From the NCBI GenBank assembly GCA_001567365.1, contig JZEL01000013.1, positions 39,058 through 103,057 of the forward strand: DNA of 64,000 nt, given 5' to 3'. The notes beneath the pieces were generated by a model. That model made no database searches, was not told where the DNA came from, and saw only the letters and a program-made list of their open reading frames with translations. This DNA comes from Parcubacteria bacterium OLB19. Lineage in GTDB: Bacteria > Patescibacteriota > Minisyncoccia > Phycocordibacterales > UBA918. The position numbers and the translations under genes are program-made. Below, in pieces: positions 15,675 to 59,921 of this stretch (the stretch's first letter is position 1; every line of letters begins with the position of its first letter).

Positions 15675-17067
15675 TTAACGATGGAATTTTATGGTTACAC
15701 CAAAACGAGACAATAGCGTTTTGATGGTTCTAAGTGCAACATCAATATCTAATAAAAAAGACCGATTTTTTACATAATAAAGATCATATGATAAACGTAT
15801 TTTCGTCTCTTCTAGAGATTGTGGACTAATGTTATTTCCCATATAGTGCTGATGAGTTTGCGCCCAGCCGGTCACACCTGGTTTAACAAAATTACGAATA
15901 TTGTAGTAAGGGATTTCTTTAGCTAAACGTTCACCCAAACCTTTAATATCATTGCGAGGACCAATTAGAGACATTTCTCCTTTCAAAATATTTAATACTT
16001 GCGGTAACTCATCAATACTAAGCTTTCGCAATAAAGCACCGACCTTGGTCACTACATTTCCTTCTTTAGCATCTTCGTTAGTCCAAGTAGAACTTGCGCT
16101 ACGATTTTCGGTCATGGTTCGAATCTTATAGACAATAACTTTTTTATTAAATTGTCCGATGCGTTCTTGAGTAATAAACAAATCGCCTCTACCTTCAAAT
16201 CTCATAGCCACATAAATAAATGGTAAAAGTAACAGTAGCACTAGACCAAGAGCAAGTGAACCAACTACGTCCACCACTCTTTTTAAGGCATCATAAACAG
16301 GGCTTTTGGCTTGAGACACATTCGTAATAAACCATTCATAATTTAAAGCTGACAAAGGTACTCGATCAAAAGTATCTTCGTAGACTTTATAGAAATCCAA
16401 AAAAGTTAGCTCGAAACGCAAAAAAGCTAAATCAAACAATTTTGGTAAAACCTTATCTAGATAACCATCATTGGTATTGGCTACAATAATATCGATCTTC
16501 TCTTTCTCGATAAGTTGCAAAAGTTTAGTTTCAAAATCAACCGTCTCTGTCGCAGTCTTCTTATCAATAATACGAACGAAGAAGTAATTATAACGGTCGT
16601 TGTTGTTTACTTCGTCGACCAATTCAATCGCTTCCGGACCATCAGCCAGAATAATGGCACGATGCATATTTTTTGGAATAAATCGATTATACAAATACAT
16701 GCGCCACCAAGTAAAAAACAGCCACACTAATAAACATATAGATAACCAAATTGGTCTTAGGAGCGATGCCAAAAGGTATAACAAAAAAAAGTAAAAATGC
16801 CACGATGGCATTTACCACTTGCGTATTCAGAATTCGGCTAAACATTAATGATTTAAAGAAAACAGTCTGTTTATCATAAAGACCAGCAATATAAAAAATC
16901 AACAACCAAACGGCAGAAATTATCAAAAACGGACCCAAATGACTACCAAACAATTCTGCGCTAGGAATAGATAAATAACGCACAAAAAGAGTCAGCCACA
17001 AGGCTACGACAAAGAAAAATATGTCACCAATAATAAGAATTAGCAGTTCTCGTGTACGCTCTCCCAT
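15675..17067 (-). CDS. polyprenyl-phosphate glycosyl-phosphotransferase (WbaP-like bacterial sugar transferase), split into two ORFs by a frameshift in an A/T homopolymer
   Basis: ORF 16687..17067 supplies TM helices; ORF 15675..16811 carries the catalytic C-domain (KIRTM...DELPQVLNILKGEMSLIGPR...PGVTGWAQ). Combined length ~464 aa equals a full-length WbaP-like protein. The overlap 16687-16811 contains an A8 run at 16783-16790; removing one base gives a continuous frame (...AFLLFLLYLLASLL...). Confidence 0.6.
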
Positions 17068-17121
17068 AGCTATGTATGTCTGATATCGTACCTAAGTCTT
17101 TGAAAATGGCAAGGGTTGAAC

Positions 17122-17183
17122 GGGCGGAAAAGATAATGGCCGGCAAGGCCTTAAGGCCTTGCCGGCCATTATCTTTTCCGCCC
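17122..17183. repeat. 29-bp perfect inverted repeat (gggcggaaaagataatggccggcaaggcc / ggccttgccggccattatcttttccgccc) with a 4-nt loop
   Basis: Read from the sequence; lies between the divergent WbaP-like and GT1 genes; shares the GGGCGGAAA core with 9801-9863. Confidence 0.85.
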
Positions 17184-17208
17184 TTTGTCCCCCACCCCAA
17201 AATAAGCT

Positions 17209-18373
17209 ATGCTATTGGTAATGGAAACCACTCCTCAAAATCATAATAAAATTCTTTACATTATAACCAAATCGAATTTTGGTGGTGCGCAAAAATACGT
17301 TTATGAATTAGCTACAGAAATGAGCAAACTTGGTTACGAAGTAGCCGTCGCTTGTGGTGGAAAAGATGAATTAGTGGAAAAATTACACCAAGCCAATATT
17401 CAAACTTATGAAGTTACAGGTTTTCAACGTGACGTTAGTATTTTTAAGGAAATAAAAGCTTTCTTCTCTTTAATTAGAATTATTCATAATTTCCAACCTG
17501 ATATCGTACACTTAAATAGCGCCAAGGCCGGTGGTTTAGGCGCCTTAACCTCTCGTTTACTTAGAGTACCAAAAATCATCTTTACTGTTCATGGTTGGTC
17601 TTTTCTTGAACCGAGACCACGACTTTGGAAAATTTTAGCTTGGTTTGGTTCTTATTTTACTTGCCTTTTAGCACACAAAATAATCACCGTCAGTCAGCAC
17701 GATTTTAGACACACCAACATGCCCGGTGTTCAGAGAAAACTCACGACCATACACACTGCTATCGCTCCCTATCCTCTTCTACCTCGTGAAGAAGCCAGAG
17801 AAAAATTAATAGGTAAAACTTTAACCAATCAACACTTATCCAACCTTTGGTTGGTCACTATTGCTGAACTCAACAACAACAAAAATCACGTCACTGCGAT
17901 AGATGCTGTAGCTGAATACAACAGCTCTCATGCCAACAAAATTTTTTATACTTTAATCGGTAGCGGTGAATTACAAAACTCACTCAAAGAGCAGGTGAAC
18001 CTACGTGGAATGACTGATTATGTTCTATTCCTTGATTATGTAGAAAACGCTAAACAATATCTATTAGCATTTGATATATTCCTTCTGCCATCAAAAAAAA
18101 GAGGGGTTGCCTTACGTTCTTCTTGAAGCTGGATTAGCCGAACTACCATGTATTGCCAGTCGAGTCGGCGGTGTTCCCGAAGTTATATCAGACCAAGAAT
18201 CAGGCTTACTAATAAACCCAAACAATCATATGAGTATCGTCGAAGCACTCACACAATTAATGAACAACCCAGACGAAAGAATGGCGTATAGTTACAATTT
18301 AGCTGACTCTATAAAAAATAATTTCAATCTTGAGCAAATGACTAAATCAACTGAAGCAATTTATAATCATTAA
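17209..18373 (+). CDS. glycosyltransferase family 1 (GT4-type), split by a frameshift in an A8 run
   Basis: N-terminal GT1 domain (ORF 17209..18126) and C-terminal EGLPYVLLEAGLAELPCIASRVGGVPEVI motif (ORF 18071..18373). The A8 at 18093-18100 read as A7 gives LLPSKKEGLPYVLLEAG. Confidence 0.65.
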
Positions 18374-19506
18374 TCAAAATTCAGTGGGCCAGATGTTTGG
18401 TTCTTGGCTAGTCGTTGATAATTTATATGACCACGCATACCGAGTACCATCGCTATCGCCAAAAATTCTATAATCAAATGAGAACCACCGTAACTCAAAA
18501 ATGGCACCGTTGTACCCGTCACTGGCAATACACCGATATTAATACCCACATGTACAAAAAAGTGTGCCAATAGCATTATAACCACTCCAGTGGCAAACAG
18601 CTTTTCAAAATTACTAACCCCCATAGTGGCATGATACAGTAAGCGCCAAAACACTACTCCGAACAAGGTAAATAACACCACCACCCCAACCAAACCCCAC
18701 TCCTCAGCAAAAGCAGCGAAGATAAAATCTGTTTCATATTCTGGCAAATAGAGAAACTTTGACTGTGTACCGTAACCAATTCCCTTTCCTAATATTTGTC
18801 CAGACCCCACAGTTACCGTTGATTGATAAGCATTATAACCAGACCCCTGAATATCAGACAAAGGATCAACGAAAGTCATGATTCTTTCTTTTTGATATTC
18901 TTGAAAGACAAACTGCCACATGCCACCAAGAGCCACCATTCCTAACAAAAACACTACTGCTACATGCCTAAAACGAATTCCAGCCACCAACACCATACCA
19001 AACCAAATGGCAAAAATAATCATAGCTGAGCCAAAGTCAGGTTGAATCAATATCAAACCAAAGACCACTAGTACATAAAATCCGGAAACTAAAATATGTT
19101 TAAAATCACTAATGAGTTCATGTCTCTTGGCAAAATATTTCGCCAAGAGGGCAATCAGTATCAATTTAGCTGGGTCAGATACTTGTAAAGAAAAAAAGCC
19201 AAAGTCAAAACGCTGTCGTGCACCCAAGGTCATCTCACCAAAAAATAACACTAATATTAGAAGTAGAATTATAAAAAGGTAGGAGTAAAAAATAATATTA
19301 CCAGTACGCAAAAAACGATAATTGGGAATTATAGCCAAGAAAAAAACCACTACCGCCAAAAACACCCAGATTATCTGTCGATTAAAGTAAATATTATCCT
19401 CGACTGGTGAATACATTGTCACCAAGCCAAAGATAGTAAGGCACATTATTGCCCCAAACAAAATACCGTCAAATCCGGAGAATAATGTTCGCCAAATACT
19501 CCTCAT
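18370..19506 (-). CDS. ftsW: FtsW/RodA/SpoVE-family peptidoglycan glycosyltransferase (cell division / elongation)
   Basis: Ten TM helices and conserved SEDS regions (FDPLSDIQGSGYNAYQS..., YLPEYETDFIFAAFAEEWG). Confidence 0.8.
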   Translation of the reverse strand: MRSIWRTLFSGFDGILFGAIMCLTIFGLVTMYSPVEDNIYFNRQIIWVFLAVVVFFLAIIPNYRFLRTGNIIFYSYLFIILLLILVLFFGEMTLGARQRFDFGFFSLQVSDPAKLILIALLAKYFAKRHELISDFKHILVSGFYVLVVFGLILIQPDFGSAMIIFAIWFGMVLVAGIRFRHVAVVFLLGMVALGGMWQFVFQEYQKERIMTFVDPLSDIQGSGYNAYQSTVTVGSGQILGKGIGYGTQSKFLYLPEYETDFIFAAFAEEWGLVGVVVLFTLFGVVFWRLLYHATMGVSNFEKLFATGVVIMLLAHFFVHVGINIGVLPVTGTTVPFLSYGGSHLIIEFLAIAMVLGMRGHINYQRLAKNQTSGPLNFD

Positions 19507-19524
19507 GCCTACAGCATATACAAA

Positions 19525-20964
19525 CTAACGCAAGGGTGCAAAGTTAGCATCAGTTTTGGTAATTACATCAATACGAGCTGGCCCCATCTCGCAAATGTCA
19601 TTTGCAATTTCTTTATAAACTCGTTCTAGATCCTTTATGGTTGGAGCTTCATAATAAGTATCCTGACTAGAGGCTAAATTTTTGATCAATGTTACATCCC
19701 TTTCTACAGCCTCTGCTTTACTAAAGAAATCTCCAAAACCAATAGCATAAATAGTCACATCTGACTCTTTAGCCTTACTAGCCATATCAACAGCATACTT
19801 ACCAGCATATTCACGATCGGCTTTATTGGTCTTTGGATTTAAAGGTCTAGTTACATCTCCGTCAGTTAAAAATACTATGACTTTTCTAGCATCTTCCCGA
19901 TGTCTTTCACTAGTTAATTCATCCAACGCAACTGCGAAAGCGTCACCCATATTGGTATATTGCACACCTTTGGTACCCATTTTAGTACTCTGAATAGAAT
20001 CAGATACCAACTTAAAATCGCTAGTTAATGTTTGTTCTATAGGTTTTGTTGGTTCAGTAGCGTATGACAGATAGCCAACTTGGTCCTGCTGGCGTAGCAA
20101 CTTAACAAACATCTTAGCTGACTGTTTTGCACTTTCAAGCGGTTCTGGTGGAACACCACCATCAGCCGCCATTGATCCCGAACGATCCAAAACCAAAACT
20201 ACATCGGATGGAACTTCACAACTACGCACCGTTTTCGCAATCGGATTCGGCCAAGTAAATACAATATCTTTTTCTGTTCTGGCTGAAAATTCATCAATTA
20301 CTGTTTGTGAAGAAGTTAGTGGTTTACCTTCTTGATTAAAAATTGTTGCCACTACCTCCACCTGTTTAGCATCGGTCAACTCAGTGTTTTCGAGTTTTAC
20401 ATTTAGTTTCGGTCTAGCATCCGCACCAACAAGTTCTATACTCATAGTGCGAAACTGACTACGCCCAATGGTGGCTGGTAACCAAGTTTTGGCTTCTTCT
20501 AAAACGATTTCTGTTTTTGTTGGTACTAAATTATCTTTAGTATAAACCCTGCCCTCAAAAATTGGATAAGTGCTATCTGGAGGCAAAACGGTCACTCCTT
20601 TTCTTTCAGCAATCACCTCATTACCATTAAAGAGACGAAAGGTATAAGTTAGAGTTGGAGTACCAGCTTCTTTGTTTTTATTAGCAACATAAGCTACCGC
20701 ATTATACTGCCCATCTACAACCTTAAAACTTTCCGCCCATATTACCTCCGGTGGCACAACCGTAAAGGCACAGATCAGCGTACAACTACCACCACAATCC
20801 ACACCAACTTCATTATTATTCAACACGCCATCGAAACAATTTGCTGGAGTATAGAAAAAAGCAAAGTATATAGTCAAAAATACTAGAGAACAAAAAGTAG
20901 TAAAACCAGCACCGTACTGTACTCTACGCCAAAAAGCCCATGGTCTTTTAATATTCAAATGCAT
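19525..20964 (-). CDS. membrane-anchored von Willebrand factor A (vWA) domain protein
   Basis: MIDAS motif VLVLDRSGSMAADGG plus downstream vWA elements (LTDGDVT, AIGFGD). The start was set at MHLNIKRPW (20964) because the track start 21036 lies inside the upstream terminator hairpin. N-terminal TM helix. Confidence 0.6.
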   Translation of the reverse strand: MHLNIKRPWAFWRRVQYGAGFTTFCSLVFLTIYFAFFYTPANCFDGVLNNNEVGVDCGGSCTLICAFTVVPPEVIWAESFKVVDGQYNAVAYVANKNKEAGTPTLTYTFRLFNGNEVIAERKGVTVLPPDSTYPIFEGRVYTKDNLVPTKTEIVLEEAKTWLPATIGRSQFRTMSIELVGADARPKLNVKLENTELTDAKQVEVVATIFNQEGKPLTSSQTVIDEFSARTEKDIVFTWPNPIAKTVRSCEVPSDVVLVLDRSGSMAADGGVPPEPLESAKQSAKMFVKLLRQQDQVGYLSYATEPTKPIEQTLTSDFKLVSDSIQSTKMGTKGVQYTNMGDAFAVALDELTSERHREDARKVIVFLTDGDVTRPLNPKTNKADREYAGKYAVDMASKAKESDVTIYAIGFGDFFSKAEAVERDVTLIKNLASSQDTYYEAPTIKDLERVYKEIANDICEMGPARIDVITKTDANFAPLR

Positions 20965-21015
20965 GGATTTAATTATAACAGATTTGTTTACCTCGCTATT
21001 GTTAATTAAACTCAA

Positions 21016-21056
21016 CCAAAATAAAAACAACTTCATGAAAATGAAGTTGTTTTTAT
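21016..21056 (-). terminator. hairpin terminator after the large repeat-protein gene
   Basis: aaaaacaacttcat-gaaa-atgaagttgttttt with a T-run on the minus strand. Confidence 0.55.
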
Positions 21057-21067
21057 TTAATAATTAA

Positions 21068-24352: not shown

Positions 24353-24355
24353 AAT

Positions 24356-25310: not shown

Positions 25311-25328
25311 GGAGTATTAAAAACTTAA

Positions 25329-25437
25329 TGTTGGCGCCTACCTACTCTGCCCCTTACGGAGTACCATCGGCGATGAAGAGCTTAACTTCCGTGTTCGGAA
25401 TGAGAACGGGTGTACCCCCTTCGCTAAAGCACCAACA
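25329..25437 (-). rRNA. rrf: 5S ribosomal RNA
   Basis: The reverse complement TGTTGGTGCTTTAGCGAAGGGGTACACCCGTTCTCATTCCGAACACGGAAGTTAAGCTCTTCATCGCCGATGGTACTCCGTAAGGGGCAGAGTAGGTAGGCGCCAACA matches the bacterial 5S consensus (CCGAAC...GAAGTTAAGC...GCCGATGGTACT...GAGTAGG). Confidence 0.8.
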
Positions 25438-25861
25438 TTAAATTTTCAATAAAGTCATCTTGTATCGCGTGAGATAATTCCCAACCGTAGTTGAGAGGGA
25501 GCGCGGGAAACTGGGAAACCAGTATTATCAAGTATCTTTATCCATCACAGTTAAGTGTAAAAAAAAAAAACTTAATATCCCGCGCAAAATCATCTCACGC
25601 GATACATGCAAATGCATATTCTTTTTTGGTAAAACCACAATTCAAAATTGTACTCTGTGCACAACATCAGCTTATATATTATGATTTATCATCGATATAC
25701 AGCGTTCCTTACAGTCGAGTGAATGAGTGAAATAAAAGCGCGATAGCATTTTTATTTCCGAGTAAATGAAGACTGTATAAACAATCTCCACCCACATCAT
25801 CCGACGTAAGTTAAACACCTGAATATCTATTCTCATCGATATACAGCGTTCCTTACAGGAA

Positions 25862-29142
<3,281 letters not shown>

Positions 29143-29884
29143 CCTGTAAGGAACGCTATATACCGCTTCTTTTAAAAGCGACGTTCCTTACGGATGTTGT
29201 GCACCGCTGCACAATTTTGAGTGTTGTCTGGTCTCTGAAAAATACAGTAATCAGAACCAGACTTGTGTTTTGGTTTGCTGTGGACGAAAAGACCCTGCTT
29301 GAGGCATAAATCTTTACACAGCAAACCTGTTTTACCTACAGCGTGAAATCACGAAGTGATTTCACGCCACTGCCACGTGTGCGTCGAAACACACGTGGAC
29401 TTTTCGGAACCGACCTTATCAAATCGGTTCCTAGAATATGCAGTTGTATGGACTCTTCCATACAACTCACCTTCGCTCGGTTATACGAAAGTAAAACTTT
29501 CATGCAACTCTCGCTCAGGTGATTTGTCAATGACCGCGTACCTCCTTGAATTTTAGTTTAAAAGACCGCGTGACCGCGGGAGAAAATCGTAAACGAATTT
29601 CGCGCGGCTAGCTTGTTCTTTTTCTAAAACTCATAAATACGTGACCGCCATTCTATACGAATGAAAAATAAAGTCAAGCGCTTATTGTGGTCAAAAACCT
29701 CTAGTTATCTCCACTTTTATACACACTTTTATACACAGGGATTTATAAGGTTATTTGATAAGGGTAATTTAAAAAAGCTGGAAAATTACAAAGCAATTTT
29801 CCAGCCAAAACTAAAATCAAAACTGTTAATTTGGAACATAAAAAAATCTCCCCGTAAAAACAGAGAGACTTTCAAGAAGAACAC

Positions 29885-31090: not shown

Positions 31091-31171
31091 TTTTACACCC
31101 CATAAATGTACTATATTAAAGAACTAAATCGACCTTCATAGATCGATCTTTAATTTATAACACAAAGTTTA

Positions 31172-31874
31172 TTATTTTGCTGTATTAAAAGAATGTAAGA
31201 CTTCCTCAAAAATTCTTATATCTTCACTATTGGTCAGTATTATATAACTAAAATTTTCCCCACCCAAAATATATACTTTCTTATACTCCTCACTATACAT
31301 ATCATCACCTCTAAATCCAATACTAGATATATTATTAATATTCAAATAATATTCTTTGGCAAAAAAAGGTATTATGTCTTTTTCTTTTTTTGTTATCATT
31401 TAAGGTGTTCTCTAAAGAATCCTTAACAACCATTATTGTTATACCCTCGTAAGGATCTTTTTTGTCTGACAACCAAATTATAGATTGTAAATTTTTAATA
31501 TCTCCAGACACCTCTTCTTGTATTTCTACTGTCCACCAATCAGGAAACCTCAATTTTATATTGTAGTTTTTGTTTATATAAGTCTGCCACTCTGAAATAT
31601 TCATATCTTTTTTAACCACCTCCACATTCTCCGGTTTTTCTTCATAGATATGTAAATCTTTTATATCCTTTGGCAGTGCGGGTGCAGATTCAGCTTCTTC
31701 TGGAATGTCTGGGGCAAATTCTATACCTATACCATCATCAACCACAAGAGTAGCTTGCGACTGTTTTTTATTTTCAGTTTGGATAACAAAGAAAGACACC
31801 GCCCCGAGTATTAAAATAATCGCAGTGGAGATGATGATTAAATTCTTCATATTCATAATAAATGATGGTATCAC
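31172..31874 (-). CDS. hypothetical membrane-anchored protein, split by a frameshift in an A/T run (31385-31391)
   Basis: ORFs 31335..31874 (N-terminal TM plus acidic region) and 31172..31399 overlap. Reading the T7/A7 run one base shorter gives a continuous ...TLNDNKKEKDIIPFFAKEYYLNI... Confidence 0.4.
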
Positions 31875-31898
31875 CTAAACTCAACAAAACCAACCCTC

Positions 31899-32535
31899 CT
31901 ACCCTCGATATGATCCATTATGCAATTCATCACGTACACCGATTTTATCAATTAGTATCTGGTGCTTGTAGTCGAAAAAATCACGAGTGAGTTTATCGTT
32001 CATACCAACACGATAAAGCAAGCTTTCATTTGTCATGAGTGCAAAGCGAATTTCCATTCCAATCTCCGCTTCAAAGGCACGAATAGCAGTTTCAATTTTA
32101 GACTGGGGTGGTTTTTTCATTGAAATAAGTAAATCTAGTTGCTGTTCAAATTCACGAACAAAGACACCTGCCACAGCGACAAAATCAAGAGGACCTGCTT
32201 TACGTAAATGCGTCAATAAATTCTTGCCATTGATAGGGGCGGTTTCAAACAAAAAAAGTTTGTAAGGCCTGTAGTTCCTGAAATTTTTTATTTAAACAAT
32301 AATGTAGAACTTTAGTTTTTCGAGTCTTACCCGGCAAAACCATCTGCACAATATGTGAAGTTATAACCCCAGCTCTTTCTAAGGCCGATATTTCAGTACG
32401 AGCAGTACGACGTACCAAACGTGCCCTTTTACACATTTCTTCAAAAGTAAACTCCTTGGACGGATTAAATAAGAAAAATCTTAAGAGTTTGACGCGGGCC
32501 GTGCTACCAAACAGAATGGAAAGTGGATCTGACAT
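31899..32535 (-). CDS. winged-helix DNA-binding-domain protein with uncharacterised C-terminal domain, split by a frameshift in A7 (32251-32257)
   Basis: ORF 32245..32535 carries a wHTH (RARLVRRTARTEISALERAGVI). ORF 31899..32252 continues in another frame; one fewer A gives ...QALQTFLFETAPINGKNLL... Confidence 0.4.
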
Positions 32536-35968: not shown

Positions 35969-36486
35969 TTATGCAGATACGTCTGCATCGGGGGCTTTTT
36001 CTTTTTGTATAATCGCAGAAAATTTATGGTAATGATCATTCAAAAATAAGATTTCTGAGTTTTTATTTCTTAATAGAATAGAGCATTTATTATCATCAGG
36101 AGCAATTATAGTTTTTAGAACATTATTTTCCTTAAGAAATTCAACTAGACAACCAAAATCGCCATCGCCTGTAAGTAATATACATTCTTTGATAGGCCTT
36201 TATAAAAATCGGAAACGGACTTTAAGACTAATTCTGCATCACAATTCCCTTTCACCATACCACGAACATTAATAGTTTGTTTGAAAACCAAAATAAAACC
36301 ACACTCTTGCAGATATTCATAAAACATTATTCTATTAGGAATTAGTCCTATGAATAAATAAACATTATTGGGAGTATATTTTTGCCTCAGCCAGCCACGA
36401 AATTTTTTATAATCGATTTTATAGCCAAGCTCAGTCGCTGCTCGATATAAATTATTTCCATCAATATAAATGTTTACCTTGACCAC
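35969..36486 (-). CDS. NYN/LabA-like (PIN-fold) domain protein, interrupted by a frameshift near 36195-36210
   Basis: N-part (ORF 36145..36600): VKVNIYIDGNNLYRAATELGYKIDYKKF...GNCDAELVL. C-part in another frame: IKECILLTGDGDFGCLVEFLKENNVLKTIIAPDDNKCS, carrying the NYN signature TGDGDF. Putative GTG start at 36486; the track start 36600 lies inside a terminator hairpin. Confidence 0.45.
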
Positions 36487-36511
36487 AATATTTACGTAAT
36501 TATACCACACC

Positions 36512-36545
36512 AAAAACCCCGACAGCGAGGCTGTCGGGGTTTTTG
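36512..36545. terminator. terminator hairpin (first of a tandem pair)
   Basis: aaaaaccccgacagc-gag-gctgtcggggttttt. Confidence 0.6.
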
Positions 36546-36586
36546 AAATTGAGTTAAAAAGGTATTTACAATTGTAACAGAACACA

Positions 36587-36617
36587 ACAAAACCCCGCAT
36601 AAAGCGGGGTTTTGTTT
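36587..36617. terminator. terminator hairpin (second of a tandem pair), directly downstream of gene 36662..38650
   Basis: aacaaaaccccgc-ataa-agcggggttttgtt. Confidence 0.6.
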
Positions 36618-36661: not shown

Positions 36662-38650
36662 TTAAGAACCTTGTACAGTCTCGTAACCAGTTCGGAAGTC
36701 TTGAGCTGGAGTTGGTGTGTAAGCCTCAGTAGATGTAATACCATCTTCATCTGAAGTGTAGTTTACATTACCAAGTTGTACACGGTATTGACCAGTAGCA
36801 AATGGGTCAACAGTTACAGTCAATGTGAATGTTTCTGTTTCACCTTCACGTACTGTGAATACACCTGAAGTGTCTTCATCAGCAGTTGATGAAAGAACTC
36901 CTGACGAAGTAGCTTTGCCACCATCAACAGAGAATTCAACACCAGTAGTTGCTGAAGTTCCTTCAGTTGCTAGTTCCTTGATGTAGAAATCACCTTCTAC
37001 AGCAGTAACTTCGAACTCAATAGTGAACTTACCGATAGTATCGTTTTCACCTTGTGTATCAGTTGTAGCTTCTACACCATCAACTGGTACAACGATACCT
37101 TCAGCTACTAGAGTATGTGACTCACCGCTAGCAGAACCAGAGAATGTGTCAATATCATCAGCACCTTCAGCGTCAGTTAGATCACGTTCTACTGAAGTTA
37201 CGTTAGCTTCGATAGTTGTACCATTTGAGTAACGATCAACGTTAGTTGAAGATTCTTGTGACTTGATGTCAACAACAACTGCAACTGTTACTTCATCATC
37301 AGCATCAATGGTTACATCACCATCAATATCGAATTCGAAAGTAGTTGTGTTAGCAGTAGTACTTGCTGAGTTTTCAGCATCGAAACTTTGTCCATCGATT
37401 TCAAGAGCAATATCATCAATTACAAGTGATGAAGTAGCTGATGTATCAACCTTTACAAACAATGTGTTAAGTTCAATATCACCTTCTTGAGCTTCGATAG
37501 TGTATTCAAGGATAGTTACACCATCTGTTGAATCATCTGTATCAACTACGATATCTGTAGCATCTGGGTTGCTTGAAGCAGTTCCGAACTTAAGTTCTTC
37601 ACCTTCACCTTCTTCAACGATTTCGAAAGCAGCTGAAGCTGATGGCAACTCATCTGTTGTGGCAACACCGTCAGCATCGAAGTAACGTACTTCTGTAGCT
37701 GTAAGTGTCCAGTCACCTTCATCTGATACACCAGCGTCGTCAACTGAACCTGCAACTGTAGCAGCAACAGTAACTTCTACTTCTTCATCTTCCATAAGTA
37801 CTAGACCTACGTTTGTGAAGCGGAATGTACCATCATCTTCATCTAGGTAATTATCCTCGTCTGAAGCGTCGAATGAAGCAACTTCTTCACCGTCTACCCA
37901 TAGAGTAATCTCTTCGAATACTTCCCATGGATCGTTTTCAGTGTTGTCACCATCAGTTTCGATAGTGAAGTCCATACGATCAATTTCGATGTCTCCATCT
38001 GTAGCTTCCATTGTAATTTCAGCTAGCTCTGCATCTTCTGCACCTTCTTGTACATCAGTGTCAGTAGCATCATCCATTTCGAATGTGTCTAGTGAACCTT
38101 CACCTGAAAGTTCATTTGATTCTTCTTCCTCTTCTTCATCTGTTGATCCTTCCTCCTCATCTTCGTCTGGAGTTGTAGTAACAGTGTTTAGAGCATTAGC
38201 TTTAGCACGTGTTGATGGACCAAAGTAACCAGTTGGGTTTACTAGACCAGCTGGTGAAAGGATATCAGCACGGTACTTAACTTGGAACTTAGATACTGCA
38301 GCGGTTGTAGCTGGACCATAAGTCTCAGTTTCCATACCAGCAGAACCAGCACCTGTAGCAGCTACACGAGTATCTGGGTCAGCGTTCAAGAACTTTTGTA
38401 GTTCCTTTACATCAGCACCAGTCATGCCTGTCTTAAGGTCACGAGTCCAAGTGTATCCGCTAGCTGTAGCGCTACCTTGTCCAGCTTGTGCTTGGAGAGT
38501 AGCGATTTGTGCTAGTAGATCATTAATCATCTTTTGTAGATCTTCAGCTGACTGTTGAGCGTTTGAAGCTGGAACAGACATTGTGAAGATCATTGCTAGT
38601 GCTACAAAAGCAACAGCTGCCTTTGAAGCAAAATCTTTTGCAATAGTCAT
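36662..38650 (-). CDS. secreted peptidoglycan-binding-domain protein with a long, extremely acidic Asp/Glu/Thr-rich region (S-layer/cell-surface candidate)
   Basis: Signal peptide; PG_binding_1-like segment LKTGMTGADVKELQKFLN...ETYGPATTAAVSKFQ; then ~450 aa dominated by D/E/T/V/G (e.g. EDEEEGSTDEEEEEESNELSGEGSLD). Confidence 0.65.
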   Translation of the reverse strand: MTIAKDFASKAAVAFVALAMIFTMSVPASNAQQSAEDLQKMINDLLAQIATLQAQAGQGSATASGYTWTRDLKTGMTGADVKELQKFLNADPDTRVAATGAGSAGMETETYGPATTAAVSKFQVKYRADILSPAGLVNPTGYFGPSTRAKANALNTVTTTPDEDEEEGSTDEEEEEESNELSGEGSLDTFEMDDATDTDVQEGAEDAELAEITMEATDGDIEIDRMDFTIETDGDNTENDPWEVFEEITLWVDGEEVASFDASDEDNYLDEDDGTFRFTNVGLVLMEDEEVEVTVAATVAGSVDDAGVSDEGDWTLTATEVRYFDADGVATTDELPSASAAFEIVEEGEGEELKFGTASSNPDATDIVVDTDDSTDGVTILEYTIEAQEGDIELNTLFVKVDTSATSSLVIDDIALEIDGQSFDAENSASTTANTTTFEFDIDGDVTIDADDEVTVAVVVDIKSQESSTNVDRYSNGTTIEANVTSVERDLTDAEGADDIDTFSGSASGESHTLVAEGIVVPVDGVEATTDTQGENDTIGKFTIEFEVTAVEGDFYIKELATEGTSATTGVEFSVDGGKATSSGVLSSTADEDTSGVFTVREGETETFTLTVTVDPFATGQYRVQLGNVNYTSDEDGITSTEAYTPTPAQDFRTGYETVQGS

Positions 38651-40402: not shown

Positions 40403-40667
40403 ACTGTCTTTTCTGTCTTATTTACTGTTAAATAGTTTCTTTTATTGTCGTTTATACTTCTTGTCTTTAACTCCTGTTGTCTTACCTACTATAAAGACAT
40501 TTTGTTTATTTGCAAGGTTATTTTTTGTCTTTGACTTAGAACAGTTTAGCATTATTTGCACAGAATTTCCTATAGCCCCTTCTACTTTTAATCCGACTCT
40601 CCCCAATATAATCAATTGGTTTTGTGGTATTATTTTGGTATTTCATAAATCACGGTTTGTATTGTTA

Positions 40668-42890
40668 TGTCTAAGAAAAAACGCACTAGTGCCCTAGAAG
40701 TAAAAGAACGGTCTCCCTTATTTGATGACCTTTCGCCACAAGCCCGTCAGGCTATCGGGGCTGTTATCGTGGGTGTTTTGGGTATCTTTTTTATTGTCTC
40801 TTCTTGGATACGCTGGCATGGTCGGAGGCTATAGCGAAGCTGCTCTGACTAAACTTTTTGGTACCGGCGCTTGGCTTGCACCATTAGCTTGTGCTTTTTA
40901 TGTCTACGCACTCATGAATCCAAAAGAGGACGACCATGTCAGCACTTCAAAAATTATCGGTATCTCTGTCCTCTTCTTTTCCTTATTAGCTAGTCTCGAA
41001 TTGTATAGTGACGGACTTGGCGGATTTACCGGTCTAGCTATCACCTATCCACTCACATATTTGGTTGGAGAAATGGTGACGGGAGTAACCTTGTTTGCAC
41101 TAGTCTTGATTGGAGTTTTTCTTACCTTCAACACCGGACTCACCTTGCCAAAATTTGGTCGAAAGGGTGAAGGAGAATTTGAAGAAATTGAGGAAGATTT
41201 CGGTCTTGAAGAACTAGACCTGCCTGAACTAGATAACACAAAAGAGGGAGAAGAAATATTAGAAGAGGAAAAAGAGGAAGAGAAAAAAGGCATTCAGTCA
41301 TTTAAAGATAAGGTGAGCGATACCTTGAAGGGAGTAAGAAATGATGCTGATATTGTAGTCAAAAATTTCAGCGGTCCTTACGTACCTCCTCCTCTTACGC
41401 TCTTAAATAAAGACAAGGGTAAGGCGATGGCTGGAGATGTGAAAGCTAACTCCATGACCATTAAACGCACCTTGAAGGAATTTGGTATTAATGTTGAAAT
41501 GGATGCTGTAGAAAGCGGTCCCGCCATTACTCGTTACTCATTGAAGCCGGCTCAAGGTGTGCGTATTTCTCGCATTGTCGCCCTGCAACAAGAACTTCAA
41601 TTAGCCCTTAAGGCCAGCACTATTCGTATTGAGGCACCTATTCCCGGCAAATCACTAGTTGGTATTGAAGTACCGAACGCTGTTCGTTCTACTGTCGGTT
41701 TGGCCTCCATTCTCAAAAATCCCGAATATACCGACTCACCACGCCCACTCTTGGTTGCTTTGGGTAAGGATGTAGCTGGTGGTGTACACTTCGCCAACAT
41801 CGCTCGTATGCCACATGCCCTAATTGCTGGTACCACCGGATCTGGAAAATCTGTAACTATACATAATATTATTGTCTCTCTCCTGTTTAGGAATTCCCCC
41901 GATCAATTACGTTTTATTTTAGTAGACCCAAAGCGCGTGGAACTCACTCTATATAATGGTATCCCACATCTACTCACACCAGTAATCACCGAGCCGAAGA
42001 AAGCTCTCAAAGCCTTAACTTGGGCAGTTAAAGAGATGGCCAGACGTTATGATATTTTGCAAGCTGAAGGTATTCAAGGACTAGATCTTTATCACAGTAA
42101 TGTCTACCAACCAGCCAAGAAGGCTTGGGAGGAAAAAGGTTCTCCGGAAGAAGAAAGAGATAACTTACCTGAACCACTACCATATATAGTTATCATCCTC
42201 GATGAGCTTAACGATTTAATGCAAGCTTACCCACGTGAACTCGAAGCCTTGATTGTACGCCTAGCACAAATGAGTCGCGCTGTCGGTATTCATCTACTCT
42301 TAGCTACTCAGAGACCTTCAGTAAACGTTATAACTGGTACCATCAAAGCTAATGTTCCGACCCGTATCGCCTTAAACGTGGCCTCACAGATAGATTCTCG
42401 TACCATTATTGATCAGATGGGAGCAGAAAAACTTCTCGGGCAGGGTGACATGCTTTATTTGTCCTCCGATAGTCCTCGTCTCATCCGTATTCAATCAGCC
42501 TTCATCTCCGGTGAGGAAATTAAGAAGGTAGTGAGTTATCTAAAAGATCAAGATAGTGCTCACCAACTCGACACTATTGACTTTGAAGACCAGAAAGACG
42601 GCATGGGCAATATGAACTCATTTATGGGTGCTATCGGTGGTAATGATGACGATGTTGGTGATGATCTCTTTGAAGATGCCAAACAAGCCGTAATGGAAGC
42701 CGGAAAAGCTTCCACCTCCTATTTGCAACGCAAACTTCGCATTGGCTATTCTCGAGCAGCCCGCCTAATGGATATTCTCGAGGAACAAGGTGTAATCGGA
42801 CCAGCCGACGGTGCTCGCCCACGTGAAGTCTTGATTGGTAAAAATGCTCCTATGGACCAAGATAACGACCTAAGTGGACGTGAGGATTAA
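40668..42890 (+). CDS. ftsK: DNA translocase FtsK/SpoIIIE; N-terminal segment displaced by a frameshift in a T6 run (40787-40792)
   Basis: Motor domain with Walker A GTTGSGKSV and a gamma-domain wHTH (STSYLQRKLRIGYSRAARLMDILE). The ATG at 40668 gives MSKKKRTSALEVKERSPLFDDLSPQARQAIGAVIVGVLGIFFIVS, which joins LLGYAGMVGGY... if the T6 is read as T5. Confidence 0.8.
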
Positions 42891-43285: not shown

Positions 43286-44383
43286 ATGGCAAAGAAAAAA
43301 ACCATTGAAAGTAGCAGTAACAAAGAGCAAGGAATCGCCAGTATTGCCGAAACCTTACGCGCTATCAAAACCAAATTCGGTGATGAAGCAATCATGACTC
43401 TAGATGAAAGCAAGAAAGTTGACGTAGACGCTATTCCAACTGGTTCAATCGGCCTTGATGATGCCCTTGGTATCGGTGGCTTTCCACGTGGACGTATTAT
43501 TGAAATCTTTGGACCAGAGTCTTCCGGTAAAACCACCCTATCTCTGCACGCAGTAGCTGAAGCACAAAAGATGGGTGGTATTTGCGCTTTTATTGACGCC
43601 GAACACGCTATGGACCCTGAGTACGCCAAAAATATCGGTGTAAAGCTGGATGAACTTTTGATTTCCCAACCAGATAATGGCGAGCAAGCCCTAGAAATTG
43701 TTGAGTCTTTAGTGCGTTCCGGTAAAATCGATGTGATTGTGATTGACTCAGTAGCCGCTCTTACCCCTAGAGATGAAATCGAAGGTGAAATGGGCGCTCA
43801 CCATGTAGGTAAACAAGCTCGTTTAATGAGTCAGGCCTTACGTAAATTGACTGGAATAGTAGCAAAAAGTAAGACGGTGGTTATCTTTATTAACCAAATC
43901 CGTATGCAAGTGGGAGTGATGTTTGGTAACCCTGAAACCACACCAGGAGGTAAAGCTCTTAAGTTCTACACTTCTGTTCGACTAGATATTCGCCGTATTG
44001 CTCAGATTAAAAAGGGCGAAGAAGTGGTTGGTGGACGTCACCGGGTAAAAGTAGTTAAAAATAAAGTAGCTTCCCCTTTCCGTACAACTGAATTTGACTT
44101 AATCTATGGTGAAGGTATCTCTCGTGAAGGTGAACTATTAGCCCTCGGTGAAAAATATAAATTCGTGAGAAAATCCGGCGCTTCTTATACTTACCTTCCT
44201 CCTGGCGGTGACGAAAGTGCTGAAGTAAAACTAGGTCGTGGTTATGATGCTGCTCGCACGTATCTGCGTGAAAACCCTAAAGTTCAAAATGAATTATTAG
44301 GCCATATTCGCCAAGCACTTAAAGACGAAGCTTCCGGTGTACAAGTAGAGAAAGCGAGTCTAAAAAAAGACAGCCGGCGATGA
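43286..44383 (+). CDS. recA: recombinase RecA
   Basis: [20 protein letters not shown] Walker A; [12 protein letters not shown]; strong end-to-end RecA similarity. Ends with TGA. Confidence 0.92.
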
Positions 44384-44420
44384 AGATGTGAGTGGTAGCG
44401 AGGAGTAAAGGATGAAAGAG

Positions 44421-49840: not shown

Positions 49841-49843
49841 ATC

Positions 49844-50704: not shown

Positions 50705-50716
50705 AACTGAATACAG

Positions 50717-52313: not shown

Positions 52314-53693
52314 CTACTTCAAATACTCTACCAATTCCGCAATTTTTACTCTCGTTTGCTCACCTGTATCTCTATCACGTACAGTAACTGTGTCTTTTAA
52401 TTCTGGTTTTTCCTCTCCTAAAGTTTCAAAATCAATCACGACACAATATGGCGTACCAATCTCATCTTGTCGGCGGTAGCGTTTGCCGATATTGCCATTG
52501 TCGTCAAAAGCAACATTACCAAATTCTTTTTTAAGAACAGCAAAAACTTCTCGGGCTTTTGTCACTAGTTCTGGTTTATTCTTTAGAAGTGGTGATACCG
52601 CTACACGGAAAGGCGCTAAATGTACTGGTAATTTTAGATAAGTTCTAACCTCACCATTCATTTCATCCTCTGTATAAGCTTCCGACAAAACCGCCGTCAA
52701 AGCTCGCCCAACACCAAAAGAAGGCTCAATCACATGTGGAATATATCTCGAACCATCAGCTTCTATATATTCCATTGTTACACCGCTAGCCTTCATGTGA
52801 TTTTTTAAGTCGTGATCGGTTCGGTAAGCAAAACCGGCCAACTCATCAAAACCTTTGCCCGGAAAATCGTATTCAAAGTCAATTGTACGCTTACTATAGT
52901 GAGCCAGGTCATTAGCTGGTACTTCATACTCTCTGACATTTTCTCTTTTCAATCCTAAGTGATCAAACCATTTCCAAATAGCTACTCGCCATTCTTCAAA
53001 AGATTTTACCCACTCTTCTTCCTTAACAAAATATTCAATTTCCATTTGTTCAAATTCACGTACTCGGAAAAGATATTCACGCGGAGCAATCTCATTACGG
53101 AAAGCTTTACCAATTTGTCCAATACCGAAAGGCATTTTAGGTGCCATTGAATCCAATACGTTTTTGAAATTCACAAAAATTCCCTGTGCGGTTTCTGGAC
53201 GAAGATATACTTTACCATCTGGTCCAGCGGTAGCACCGATAGTAGTTTCAAACATTAGATTAAATTGTCTTGCTGGTGACAGACTATTTCCTTTTGGACT
53301 CTTAATTCCCTTTTCGGAAATTATTTTATCAATATCGGCAAGTGACATACCTTCAGCATCAAGACCGTTATCCTTGAGTAAGTGATCAGCTCGGTAACGC
53401 TCACCGGTTTCCAAATCTTCAACTAACGGGTCACAAAAACCTGCTCCTGTATGTCCTGAAGCCTCCCAAACTTTAGCATTCATCAAAATTGCAGCGTCAA
53501 GACCGTACATGTCTTCCCTACCATCAACAAACATTTTCCACCACTCACGCTTAATGTTATTGTTTAGAGTTACACCTAAAGGTCCGAAATCCCAAGTCCC
53601 TTTTAATCCCCCATAAATCTCACTACCTTGAAATACAAAACCTCTTCGCTTACAAAGCGAAACGATTTTCTCCATCTTATTTTCGTTTTTCAT
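52314..53693 (-). CDS. glyQS: glycyl-tRNA synthetase (dimeric alpha2 type)
   Basis: RRGFVFQGSEIYGGLKGTWDFGPLG N-terminal motif and class II motifs. Confidence 0.85.
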   Translation of the reverse strand: MKNENKMEKIVSLCKRRGFVFQGSEIYGGLKGTWDFGPLGVTLNNNIKREWWKMFVDGREDMYGLDAAILMNAKVWEASGHTGAGFCDPLVEDLETGERYRADHLLKDNGLDAEGMSLADIDKIISEKGIKSPKGNSLSPARQFNLMFETTIGATAGPDGKVYLRPETAQGIFVNFKNVLDSMAPKMPFGIGQIGKAFRNEIAPREYLFRVREFEQMEIEYFVKEEEWVKSFEEWRVAIWKWFDHLGLKRENVREYEVPANDLAHYSKRTIDFEYDFPGKGFDELAGFAYRTDHDLKNHMKASGVTMEYIEADGSRYIPHVIEPSFGVGRALTAVLSEAYTEDEMNGEVRTYLKLPVHLAPFRVAVSPLLKNKPELVTKAREVFAVLKKEFGNVAFDDNGNIGKRYRRQDEIGTPYCVVIDFETLGEEKPELKDTVTVRDRDTGEQTRVKIAELVEYLK

Positions 53694-53706
53694 ACACTAA
53701 AATCCA

Positions 53707-55686: not shown

Positions 55687-55720
55687 ACTTAAGTCGAATT
55701 ATACCACCAAACACAAAGAG

Positions 55721-56299
55721 CTAGAGGTGGCTATTCGCAATTGCTTTTTCTAGTAACAATTCCAATTTAGCCACCGGTAACTCAGTTCGAAAATCTTCCA
55801 ATTCAGAAAAAACCGCACTTTTAAAATCTTTAGGAATACTACCCTCATCCACATACCCTAGTTCGTTGAGTATTTTGAGTTGCACAATTAAATCCCAAAA
55901 AAGCCTTTCATTATTAATTTTATTCATTTCCTCTAAAGCCAGAAGACAAAAATCAAAAAGTGCAGGCAGAGACTCCTCCCCATGAATGAAGCGTCTTAGA
56001 GTTTTAAATACAGTAACAACACTACCGCGAACCAAACGATTGTCGGCTTGGGTGAAATAATTAGTTTTAGCTTCCACACTTCCCACTTTCCATCCTTGTT
56101 TTCCTTTAATTAAAGAAACTCTAATTAAAGAAAAATCTTGCAAAGCAAATCTTTGTTTTGATCTTTCCTCCCGTACACTCTTGGCAGTGGCATACAACAT
56201 TCCCACCTCTCGCGTGAACAAGAGAAATACTTTGTCGGCGGTATTGTGAAGAAAACTCCCACACACCAACGCCTCAGTTGTGTAGGTATGGTATGACAT
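55721..56299 (-). CDS. recO: DNA repair protein RecO-like
   Basis: N-terminal OB-fold pattern (TEALVCGSFLHNTADKVFLLFTREVGMLYATAKSVRE...FALQDFSLIRVSL). Short for a RecO (192 aa), hence moderate confidence. Confidence 0.5.
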   Translation of the reverse strand: MSYHTYTTEALVCGSFLHNTADKVFLLFTREVGMLYATAKSVREERSKQRFALQDFSLIRVSLIKGKQGWKVGSVEAKTNYFTQADNRLVRGSVVTVFKTLRRFIHGEESLPALFDFCLLALEEMNKINNERLFWDLIVQLKILNELGYVDEGSIPKDFKSAVFSELEDFRTELPVAKLELLLEKAIANSHL

Positions 56300-59200
56300 T
56301 AAAGTTTATGAATTGATATAACGAAGGAATTTTCACCAGCCTTAATTTCCTTTCCGGAATTTTCCGTAATAATTATCTCACTCGCACCAACGGTCTTTTT
56401 GATTAAATTAGACATATTAGTGTTGCTTAATAATTCTTCTCCAACTTCATTGGTTTTAATTTCTAAGCGGATACTATCTTGTGGCACCAGACCAGCTTCT
56501 TTTCGCATATCCTGAATAGCACGAATCAAATCACGAGTATCACCTTCCATTTTTAGTTCGGGGGTAATGACAGTATTTAGAATCACTCTCTCTGTTTGAT
56601 TGATATCGAAGGCTACCATTTTTACATTAATTTCTTCAGCAACAATATCAGTATATTCTTTAGCCATTTCAATATTAAGAGTCAAAGAAGAAAGTGGTTG
56701 ACGCACCTTAATATTGGCTTTAGTTCTTGCTTCAAGGGCAGTGGTTACAAATTCCCGAACCAGACTCATTTCACCAATCACCACAGGATCAACCTCCCCC
56801 ACATTTGGCCACTCTGACAAATGCACACTTATAGCCTCGTTCCCATTTCTTACTTTCTGCCACAGATATTCAGCATAAAACGGCATAGCTGGAGCCATTA
56901 CTTGTGCCAAAGTCTTTAGTACATATCTCAGTGTTCCGAGTGCTAACTTTTTATCTGTTTCATCTTCACCTTTCAAACGTTCTCGCGAACGGCGCAAATA
57001 CCAAACCGATAGGTCGTCAATAAAATCAGTCAGTGGTCTGGTAGCTTTATCAAGCTCATAAGCTTTATAACCATTTGTCACCTCGAGGGTTAGTTGATTG
57101 AGGCGCGCCACGATCCATCTATCCAAAATATTACTGGAATCGTGGCGCGCTCCCCACCATCCTGAAACATTTCATACATCGCCAACACATTATGCAAGCG
57201 TCCCAAGTTTTTACGTTGTTGTTCTAAAACCTCCTTTTCCGAAAAACTCAAATCTTCTCCATGTACTACTGGCGATGACAAAAGATAATAACGTACAGCA
57301 TCAGCTCCTAGACGATTCACCAAATCCACCGGATCTGGATAGTTATTTAATGATTTACTCATCTTCTTACCATCCTCAGCTAAGACTAGACCATTCACCA
57401 CCACATTTTCATAAGGTGACTTATCAAATAAAGCCACACCCAAAACTAGCATGGAATAGAACCAACCCCGAGTTTGATCCAAACCTTCGGCAATAAACTG
57501 TGCTGGGAAACATTCTTTAGTAAAAGTATCAGCACAAGAAAAAGGATAATGATGTTGGGCATATGGCATAGAGCCACTCTCAAACCAACAATCAAACACG
57601 TCCGGTACCCTCTCCAATTCCTCATCACCATCGTAAAGTTTTACTTCATCGATATATGGTCGATGATAATCAAGTTCATAGTTATCGTTGTGTGGTAGCG
57701 GTGAAAATGACAAAGTACGCAGTTCAGCATTTTGGAGATCATAAGAATTATCTTCAATGTGCTTCGCCGTAACTTCAAGATCATCACCCTCTACCACTGC
57801 CTGCATCATCTGCAAAGTACCATTATGAGATACAAACAAAATATTTTTACCATTATGTTTTTGCTCAAGTTCATAAAGTAACTCTCCCACTCGCTTTTTC
57901 ACATCCAACCAATTTTCTCCTCCTTCCGGTCTTTTAGTCAACCTATCAATACCAGTAGCAAAGAAAGAATGATATTCATCAACCGTTCTTCCCTCAAATT
58001 CACCAAACCCCATTTCTAAGAGACGTACATCTTCCACTAACACACTATTATCTAGTCCAAGATTCTTAGCGATTTCCTCAGCGGTTTCTTTAGTTCTTTG
58101 TAGTGGTGAATAATAAATAAAATCAATCTTTTCTGACTGCAATTTCTCCGTCAAACCCTTGATTTGTTCTCTACCTTTTTCTGTTACGCCATTCTCTACA
58201 CCATCCTTAACATTCAGAGTATTTTGTGTGTTTAATTTTGACTCAGCATGACGGGTAATGAGATATTTGTTACCGCTTTTTGGTATAAAAGTTTTTAATT
58301 CCTCAAGTGAGCCGATTACTTTTATTTCACCTGATTTTTTATTTCGCCAGATTGGTAGTGGCGCACCCCAATAACGCTGACGTGACACAGCCCAGTCACG
58401 AGCGCCTTCAAGCCATTTTCCAAAACGATTACTACCAACATGGTCTGGTACCCACTTCACTTTATTATTAGCTTCAACCAACTTATCCTTAATATCAGTT
58501 ACTTTCACAAACCATGAAGTAGTACCGTAATTCAAAAGGGGTGTTCCGTCTCGCCAACAATGCGGATAACTGTGCGTAATATTTTCCTTCTTAAAAATCT
58601 TTCCCTGCTCCTGCAAATATTTCAAAACTTTTATATCGGCATCAAGATGAGATACTCCCGTAGCATCATCGTCTTTTGGTTTCACTAATTGTCCAGCAAA
58701 TTCTGTTACAAACGGCATAAAGCGACCTTCATAGTCAACATGATGAACAATCGGAATATTGTTTTCCTTAGCCAAATTCATATCTTCCTCGCCATAAGCT
58801 GGAGCAATATGTACCGCACCCGTTCCCTCTTCACCAAGCTCAACATAATCAGCATGATAAATTTTCCAAGCTGTTTCTACCCCTTTGATGTCTTGCTTTC
58901 GTAGATAATCAAAGGGAGGCTGATATGAAAGATCTACTAAGTCTGAGCCTTTCATTTCTTCAACTATAGATAGTACAAATTCTCCCCATAAGTAATTACC
59001 GTCATTGTCTTTTTTTATACCTGGAATTTTTCCAAGCATTTCTTTAGCAAGAATTATGTATTCATTATTTTTTGATGGTCTTTCTTTATATTCGATTTTT
59101 GATGCGTAAGCTGGTAAAACTAAAACTTTCACATACTCGAAGTCCTTATTTATCGCCACCGCCATATTGCCTGGCAGAGTCCAAGGCGTAGTTGTCCAAA

Positions 59201-59921
59201 TCAAAATACTAGTGTCAGTCGGCTTACCTTCACTATCGAGAAGAGGCATTTTCACTGTCACGGAAATATCTTTCACATCTGCATAGCCTTGGTTTACCTC
59301 GAAGTTGGATAAGGTCGTGCCACAACGTGGACATAAATGCATAGCTTTATACCCTTCATAAACCAGACCCTTTTCATGAAGCTGTTTAAACACCCACCAC
59401 ACACTTTCGGTGTAGGTGCTATCCATGGTCTTGTAGTCATTTTCCATATCTACAAAACGCCCCAGACGTGGCACTATTTTTTTCCAATCATCAGCGTACT
59501 CCAAAACCGCCCCTCGAGCTTCTTCGTTAAAATTCTTAATACCAAATTCCTCGATATCTTTTTTATTGGCTAATCCCAACTTTTTCTCGATTAGATTTTC
59601 TAGTGGTAAACCATGACAATCCCAACCCCAGCGTCTTTTCACTCGAAAACCATTCATCGTCCAAAAACGCGGGATGGCGTCCTTTATCGTACCAGCCAAA
59701 ATATGCCCGTAGTGTGGCAAGCCAGTCGCAAACGGCGGACCATCATAAAAAATATATTCTCCTTTTGGCTCAGCTCCCGCCGGCCTTGCCATACTTTTAT
59801 TAAAAATATCTTCTCGTTGCCAAAAAGATTGTATCTCCTCTTCGCGTAGAGCCATCTCGCTTTTTACCACTTCTGCTACCACCTCCACCGTATCATTTTC
59901 ACGATTTATTTTTTTAGACAT
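56299..59921 (-). CDS. ileS: isoleucyl-tRNA synthetase, split into two ORFs by an apparent 1-nt deletion in a T/A run (~57125-57132)
   Basis: HYGH and KMSKS motifs in ORF 57090..59921. The anticodon-binding domain DRWIVARLNQLTLEVTNGYKAYEL is in ORF 56299..57126. Reading the T4 as T5 gives ...ATIPVIFLDRWIVARL... Confidence 0.85.

Follow-up and report, generated by a model that had tools for sequence, protein, structure and literature searches.

The stretch of DNA analyzed here (the window, 64,000 nucleotides in length) is part of a 110,985-bp contig in the metagenome bin 'Parcubacteria bacterium OLB19', and eight of its genes contain insertions or deletions (indels) of one or two bases that disrupt the reading frame. 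These genes encode a WbaP-like sugar phosphotransferase, a GT4/GT1 glycosyltransferase (GT1), a small membrane-anchored hypothetical protein (hyp), a winged helix-turn-helix (wHTH)-like hypothetical protein, a NYN-domain protein, FtsK, RecA and the isoleucine-tRNA ligase IleS. The same genes are intact in independent assemblies, and comparison with those assemblies establishes the positions and sizes of the indels. The eight indels are very probably residual base-calling errors of the Ion Torrent Personal Genome Machine (PGM) that survived into the consensus of the OLB19 metagenome-assembled genome, and OLB19's own DNA would then carry all eight genes intact. A preliminary description of the window had already proposed systematic sequencing or assembly error for seven of the genes, and this proposal is now supported by the PGM source of the data, by the intact independent assemblies and by a matching error spectrum.

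Origin of the OLB19 record

The longer fragment of IleS in the window, of 943 amino acids (aa), is 100% identical to KXJ99859.1, deposited as 'Isoleucine--tRNA ligase 2 [Parcubacteria bacterium OLB19]'. The remaining gene fragments are present in GenBank as separate proteins (KXJ99821, 22, 23, 30, 31, 32 and 39), with locus tags UZ19_OD1000321-341. One Parcubacteria/OD1 bin from the Olburgen reactor, comprising 31 contigs and 0.9 Mb and deposited as JZEL00000000, was described by Speth et al. 2016 (PMC4821891). OLB19 is linked to that bin by its locus tag, by its phylum and by the correspondence between 'OLB' and Olburgen; the name OLB19 itself is absent from the main text. The sole platform used in that work was the IonTorrent PGM with 400-bp chemistry, and the paper notes 'persistent frameshifts, common in IonTorrent data', for which a homology-based repair script and manual curation were used on the bin (PMC4821891). 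Taken together, the KXJ998xx matches and the source paper give the window the flow-based (PGM) origin that an Ion Torrent artefact presupposes.

Detection of the broken genes

All seven genes in the preliminary description appear as pairs of adjacent, overlapping open reading frames (ORFs) that lie on the same strand in different frames. When every ORF of at least 80 aa from 36 related contigs was compared with the window by tblastn, pairs of matches that switch frame were found, in the covered parts, at exactly these seven genes and at no other protein-coding place, and the original recognition of the seven splits was therefore sound. The contigs used for comparison derive from sequencing runs and assemblies other than that of OLB19 and were found by cluster look-ups and homolog searches. 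A scan of genome contigs with a 662-aa PG_binding protein, which returned relatives at 39-71% identity only, also fed the frame-switch scan.

The only other frame switches detected by tblastn are inside the 23S rRNA gene, apart from one spurious 19-aa match; the switching matches at 27.2-28.3 kb are thus not protein-coding. Further split-gene candidates, selected by same-strand ORF overlap, proved on inspection to be separate adjacent genes or lone ORFs. Dismissed in this way were a sigma factor with the gene after it (45.6-46.6 kb), a pair of lipoprotein genes (8.2-9.0 kb), EF-P and an M23 peptidase.

Five sites (IleS, GT1, NYN, FtsK and RecA) could be compared with relatives at 98.6-99.4% DNA identity and the other three (hyp, wHTH and WbaP) at 86-96%, and all relatives are intact at all of them. 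At every site, alignment of the coding sequence with these relatives shows no gap other than the lesion. Across the 16.8 kb covered at 97% identity or more, there are five coding indels, all of which break the frame in the window and none of which (0/5) does so in the relatives. Each gene carries exactly one lesion, and the corrected proteins are 95.7-99% identical to their intact relatives, downstream of the break as well as upstream, with no extra stop codons. A restored open frame is not enough to place a lesion: the first one-base repairs, made at the positions initially proposed for WbaP, hyp, FtsK and IleS, all yielded open frames and yet were contradicted by the alignments of homologs.

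Lesions in ileS, ftsK and recA

The ileS gene (56299..59921, minus strand) is split into a catalytic core of 943 aa (KXJ99859.1) and a 275-aa fragment containing the anticodon-binding domain and DUF5915. The lesion is between 57150 and 57151, where one C is missing (GGCGCG[C]CTCCCC on the plus strand), so that CC is read as C. Contig L001, from run SRR31850040, is 99.4% identical to the window with only one gap in 2,774 bases; this gap is the IleS site, where the contig has GGGGAG[G]CGCGCC on the minus strand. Homologs of IleS read QDGGEARHDSNNILDRW here. The preliminary description had correctly called a missing base but had assigned it to the A4/T4 runs at 57125-57132, about 20 bases from the real gap, which is in a G/C 2-mer. 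A naturally split IleS, in which relatives would share the division and the second part would have a start signal of its own, was considered and rejected, as the 119 other best homologs listed are single proteins of 1169-1248 aa and the 99.4%-identical strain has one ORF.

Inserted into the catalytic core of IleS is an entire histidine-phosphatase domain (His_Phos_1, PF00300, E = 4e-33), which has an RHAES motif and is encoded at 57774-58262 on the minus strand (residues 554-716). PF00300 is listed for all 120 of the best IleS homologs, which belong to Paceibacteria/Parcubacteria and are 61-83% identical, and the insertion is therefore a conserved lineage feature rather than an artefact. A full-text literature search on a histidine-phosphatase domain in IleS found no paper.

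The ftsK/spoIIIE gene (40667..42890, plus strand) has its first 41 codons in another frame, and the deposited protein (P0148) is a 690-aa product beginning at an internal ATG. The lesion is in the run at 40787..40792, which is T6 and should be T8. Three contigs from three runs (L029, L030 and L031; 98.8-99.3% identity) all have T8 at this position. Two phenylalanines are found here (GIFFLLS or a close variant) in 30 of the 31 best homologs inspected, so the gene lacks two bases rather than having one too many. The tract had thus been identified correctly from the start, whereas the single extra base first proposed for it is at odds with the T8 of the relatives.

The eighth lesion, which was not part of the preliminary description, is in recA (43286..44408, plus strand). 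In the window, this gene ends early, at 44383, with a wrong C-terminal tail (KXJ99844.1, 365 aa). The run at 44362..44368 is A7 and should be A6, as it is in the 99.3%-identical contig L029, so that one base is extra. The RecA proteins P0400 and P0403 (373 aa) end in an acidic tail; at this place the window has KKDSRR followed by a stop codon.

A rival possibility is that the lesions are real, strain-specific mutations, resulting either from early pseudogenisation in a reduced symbiotic genome or from a mutator lineage. Bacteria in the candidate phyla radiation (CPR) indeed have reduced genomes, and the comparison contigs come from other strains at 0.6-14% divergence and provide evidence at the level of consensus sequences. 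Nevertheless, two of the genes, ileS and ftsK, are essential, and the 120 best matches of each include no second copy from OLB19. Pseudogenes are expected to have several lesions, to show relaxed constraint and to be dispensable or duplicated, whereas the genes here have a single frame switch each and retain both their similarity to intact relatives and their freedom from additional stops. Moreover, eight lesions in 64 kb would extrapolate to about 100 in a 0.9-Mb genome, a load that is incompatible with viability and typical of an uncorrected PGM consensus. Artefacts of this kind were also reported by Speth et al. themselves. Real mutation of these genes is accordingly extremely unlikely.

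Lesions in the sugar phosphotransferase and glycosyltransferase genes

The GT4/GT1 glycosyltransferase gene (17209..18373, plus strand) is divided into ORFs of 305 and 100 aa, of which the N-terminal fragment is KXJ99823.1. The Pfam Glycos_transf_1 match runs across the break, the first ORF covering profile positions 18-102 and the second covering 99-168. The preliminary description placed an extra base in the A8 run at 18093..18100, and this is confirmed: three contigs from three runs (L022, L023 and L024; 98.6-99.0% identity) have A7, and this is the sole gap in alignments of up to 3.8 kb. Correction to A7 brings back the motif PSKKEGLPYVLLEA.

The WbaP-like gene (a Bac_transf family member; 15675..17067, minus strand) consists of ORFs of 126 and 378 aa (KXJ99822.1 and KXJ99821.1). 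Among the 120 best homologs, the majority are unsplit proteins of exactly 463 aa, the length of the corrected gene product, and the rest are 435-483 aa. An extra base had been proposed in the A8 run at 16783-16790, and its removal does yield a protein of the right length (463 aa), but a segment of 30 aa is then out of frame and the identity to protein P0265 is only 90%. The A8 is correct as assembled; it is in frame and encodes a conserved LLFFV. The real site is 70 bases away, in the A6 run at 16713..16718, which should be A5. The extra base is placed there by the homologs, in which FISVAVF is followed directly by TWWRMYLYN, and removing one A from this run gives 443/463 identities (95.7%) to P0265. 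Contig L032, with 86% DNA identity, has A5 at this site and no other gap inside the coding sequence.

For these two genes, the preliminary description had also raised phase variation. Under this explanation, the GT1 A-tract, and perhaps other tracts, would be a contingency locus subject to slipped-strand mispairing, and OLB19 would have been caught in the 'off' state. Contingency genes that vary by homopolymer slippage include the glycosyltransferases of Campylobacter, Haemophilus and Helicobacter. GT1 resembles them as a glycosyltransferase with a coding A7/A8 tract, the longest tract involved in any of the lesions, in a surface-glycan gene. Its orthologous tract also occurs in three lengths across assemblies: it is A8 in the window and A7 in nine assemblies, namely L022-L024 and six contigs from another species, but A6 in a sister of those six, the Joint Genome Institute (JGI) contig L017, in which the gene is split as well. 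Each of these readings comes from one consensus. A hyp ortholog is similarly split at a T8/T9 tract in the Logan contig L021.

The likeness does not extend much further. Phase variation would be restricted to contingency genes and would spare essential ones, but ileS, ftsK and recA are hit; unlike in the contingency genes of Campylobacter and its counterparts, housekeeping and essential genes in the window are affected equally, the tracts are short and two lesions are outside repeats. Runs of seven or eight bases are short for an efficient poly-A/T phase switch. A phase-variable locus would have a long simple-sequence tract in the coding region or promoter of a surface, glycan or restriction-modification gene, and GT1, the only case that pairs a glycan gene with an 8-base tract, may be of this kind. 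The lesion of WbaP is in A6 rather than A8, and the others are in housekeeping genes or genes of unknown function. The GT1 tract encodes plain Ser-Lys-Lys (TCA AAA AAA), using the preferred lysine codon (208 AAA against 105 AAG in eight long ORFs sampled). Furthermore, a VWA gene of L017 carries another homopolymer frameshift within 17 kb, suggesting that this assembly is prone to errors. Because lesions of the same kind occur in ileS, ftsK, recA and the NYN gene within the same 44 kb, no special mechanism is needed for GT1. Phase variation is therefore a very unlikely source of the lesions, and the suggestion of it in the preliminary description is weakened for WbaP and survives for GT1 as a distant prospect. 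That the conserved tract at 18093-18100 is a genuine slippage on/off switch for surface glycans in Paceibacteria, with A8 as a real 'off' allele, is likewise highly improbable; if true, it would be the first case of phase variation in CPR bacteria.

The two L017 frameshifts are located at 18144 and 19837 (in L012 coordinates), the former in the glycosyltransferase ortholog (A6 versus A7) and the latter at an A6/A5 run in the VWA gene, and the T8/T9 run in L021 is at L012 coordinate 11092. These frameshifts in related Paceibacteria may be either errors or genuine variants.

The WbaP-like and GT1 genes are transcribed divergently, and the space separating them contains a near-perfect palindrome of 68 bases (17119-17186), made up of two 34-nt arms that are 97% complementary and have no spacer. 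The 86%-identical contig L032 has a perfect palindrome of 30+30 nt at the equivalent place. Because its inner sequence is different, the symmetry has been kept through changes on both arms. This element could be an operator or a structured element.

Lesions in the hyp, wHTH and NYN genes

The hyp gene (31172..31856, minus strand) encodes 227 aa when corrected and is split in two, with KXJ99830.1 as the N-terminal fragment. Its lesion is one extra base in the T5 run at 31379..31383, which should be T4. The break had been assigned to the run at 31385-31391, but the T7 there is correct as assembled and the lesion is in the neighboring T5. The four cluster mates of the protein (P0386-P0389) read NDNKKRKDIIPFF. 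Contigs from ENA (L033, L034/L035 and L036; 92-96% identity) have GTCTTTT-CTTTTTTT, and this is the only gap in the coding sequence. The corrected protein is identical to P0388 at 218 of 227 positions. A scan of metagenome contigs with the hyp protein gave no match.

This gene also has very different alleles in strains that are otherwise near-identical. When the region from 31162 to 31886 is compared with L025 (4251-4991) and L026 (791-1531), the flanks are 87-99% identical to the window, yet the hyp gene of those contigs, which encodes 246 aa, shows no match at the nucleotide level. The ENA contigs L033 and L036 have the allele seen in the window (227 aa, 92-96% DNA identity), and a third form, of 266 aa, is found in L012. 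This distribution suggests a fast-evolving or swapped surface protein.

The wHTH-like gene (31899..32535, minus strand) encodes 211 aa when corrected and is split into 96 and 117 aa (KXJ99832.1 and KXJ99831.1). All 14 homologs (14/14) read QTFLFETAP, which is the reading obtained when one base is deleted from the A7 run at 32251..32257, leaving six bases. The relatives L025-L028, L033 and L034 (91-94% identity) have CAGAAAAG or CAAGAAGG there, with the single gap at this place. Both the homologs and this gap agree with the extra base that had been proposed in the A7.

The NYN-domain gene (35969..36600, minus strand) is also split in two, and its N-terminal fragment is KXJ99839.1. The NYN Pfam profile crosses the break, with positions 1-87 on one side and 95-140 on the other. 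The fragments score 23.1 and 17.7 bits, whereas the corrected protein has one domain (profile 1-138 of 145) that scores 50.3 bits. A homopolymer near 36195-36210 had been suspected. Instead, comparison with L025 (98.9% identity over 3.5 kb) indicates that a lone, non-repeated T is missing from the window after 36191 (36191..36192, CTTTG[T]ATAGG); L025 has this T and reads DFYKGLYKECILLTGDGDF.

Lesion pattern and the PGM error spectrum

In sum, the lesions comprise one extra base at each of five A/T runs of 5-8 bases, two bases missing from what should be T8, one C lost from a CC that adjoins GCGCGC and a lone T lost. Six of the eight are in A/T runs of 5-8 bases. The 181 A/T runs of at least six bases make up 1.79% of the window and hold five of the eight lesions (binomial P ~1e-7). 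Among such runs, 29 can be checked against near-identical contigs; 26 agree and three (10%) differ. The initial characterization of the lesions as single-base length differences in A/T homopolymers thus applies to five of the eight; FtsK differs by two bases, and the NYN and IleS lesions are outside A/T homopolymers.

Two classes of PGM indel error were described by Bragg et al. 2013 (PMC3623719), the paper cited by Speth et al. for the frameshift problem. In the first, flow calls become less accurate as runs lengthen, with about 68% accuracy at 6-mers and a tendency to under-call long runs. The second consists of 'high frequency indel' errors, roughly one per kb of reference, which mostly involve one base and of which only 29% are in homopolymers; deletions of C/G in 2-3-mers are prominent among them, under-calls of 1-mers are 'not improbable', and they are explicitly stated to give frameshifts in assemblies (PMC3623719). 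The eight lesions fit both classes. An Ion Torrent artefact should produce indels in homopolymers along with sporadic ones at 1-3-mers, and this is the profile observed. The PGM errors in that work, as well as those of the 454 type, are like the lesions in the window in their A/T-run indels, their deletion of C/G in a 2-mer and their occurrence in both directions. The one difference from the PGM read statistics is that over-calls outnumber under-calls in the long runs of the window by 5 to 1; nothing essential differs.

Several observations weigh against sequencing error as the source of the lesions. The evidence at each lesion consists of consensus sequences, both for OLB19 and for the comparison assemblies (Logan, ENA). 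As the comparison strains differ from the window by 0.6-14% in DNA, a strain-specific real mutation is conceivable at any single site. The A6 of the GT1 tract in the unrelated JGI assembly L017 is to be expected of an error hot spot and of a truly slippery tract alike. Finally, over-calls account for five of the six homopolymer lesions, whereas under-calls were found by Bragg et al. to dominate per read. Errors in a consensus may depart from the rates seen in single reads, yet the excess leaves the fit imperfect.

A further explanation is recoding, in which the products of genes that are truly out of frame would be restored by a programmed ribosomal frameshift or by slippage of transcription at the A/T tracts. 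RNA polymerase is liable to slip on A/T runs, where six of the eight lesions are found. In the insect endosymbionts Buchnera and Blochmannia, frameshifts in poly(A) tracts are rescued by transcriptional slippage, and OLB19 is similar to these organisms in its AT-rich, reduced genome and in having A/T-tract frameshifts in otherwise intact genes. The frameshifted tracts of the endosymbionts, however, are genuine and mostly longer, and the lineage has kept them, whereas the near-identical relatives of OLB19 are in frame. A programmed frameshift is conserved among orthologs. Recoding fails this test because every ortholog examined, from 99% down to ~65% identity, is a single uninterrupted ORF. In addition, the NYN and IleS lesions are outside slippery sequence, and the shifts needed vary in sign and size (+1, -1 and -2). 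The probability that recoding operates at these genes is close to nil.

If the lesions are PGM errors, as seems very probable, they could have arisen and persisted as follows. In flow sequencing, run length is read from signal amplitude, and long A/T runs would have been mis-sized; occasional high-frequency indels may have dropped a base at runs of one or two, such as the lone T of the NYN gene and the C of CC in ileS. The authors' repair script and curation cleared many such errors but not these eight, and the gene caller would then have emitted fragments that were deposited as separate proteins. It may be that the script, which relied on homology, had few CPR reference proteins to draw upon in 2015. 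Two of the lesions detach just a small piece of the protein (the N-terminus of FtsK and the tail of RecA), and this too may have helped them to escape repair.

The value of these results is practical rather than biological, as the frameshifts themselves yield no new biology. The public OLB19 record contains at least eight uncorrected indels in 64 kb, with the essential ileS and ftsK, and other genes, fragmentary and the recA terminus wrong. Users of OLB19 would be misled in analyses of gene content, pseudogenes, completeness and 'missing function' in CPR bacteria. The sole use of the lesion list is to provide corrections to the public record.

rRNA genes and variable regions

The window contains a 23S rRNA gene (25851-29149), a 5S rRNA gene (25329-25436) and a 16S rRNA gene (3513-4971), all on the minus strand. 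The 16S gene is ~21 kb away from the 23S-5S pair and is unlinked from it. The 23S match spans 3,299 bases against a model of 2,925 positions, indicating about 370 extra bases inserted. Compared with L034, which is 99.5% identical in the 23S gene, the window has T3 rather than T2 at ~28291-28293 and is missing a C near 28810, and single-base differences from L025 and L026 occur in the leader region at 29225 and 29423. These differences in the 23S gene and its leader are probably further PGM indels in non-coding sequence.

Dense small indels distinguish positions 3600-3940 of contig L012 from L013-L017, in contigs that are otherwise more than 99% identical. This region is the acidic, repeat-rich part of a PG_binding_1 protein, the ortholog of which is encoded at 36662-38650 in the window. 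Either the repeats vary here or this is a spot where assemblies are apt to collapse, and the gene calls for this protein among the JGI contigs vary from 185 to 692 aa.

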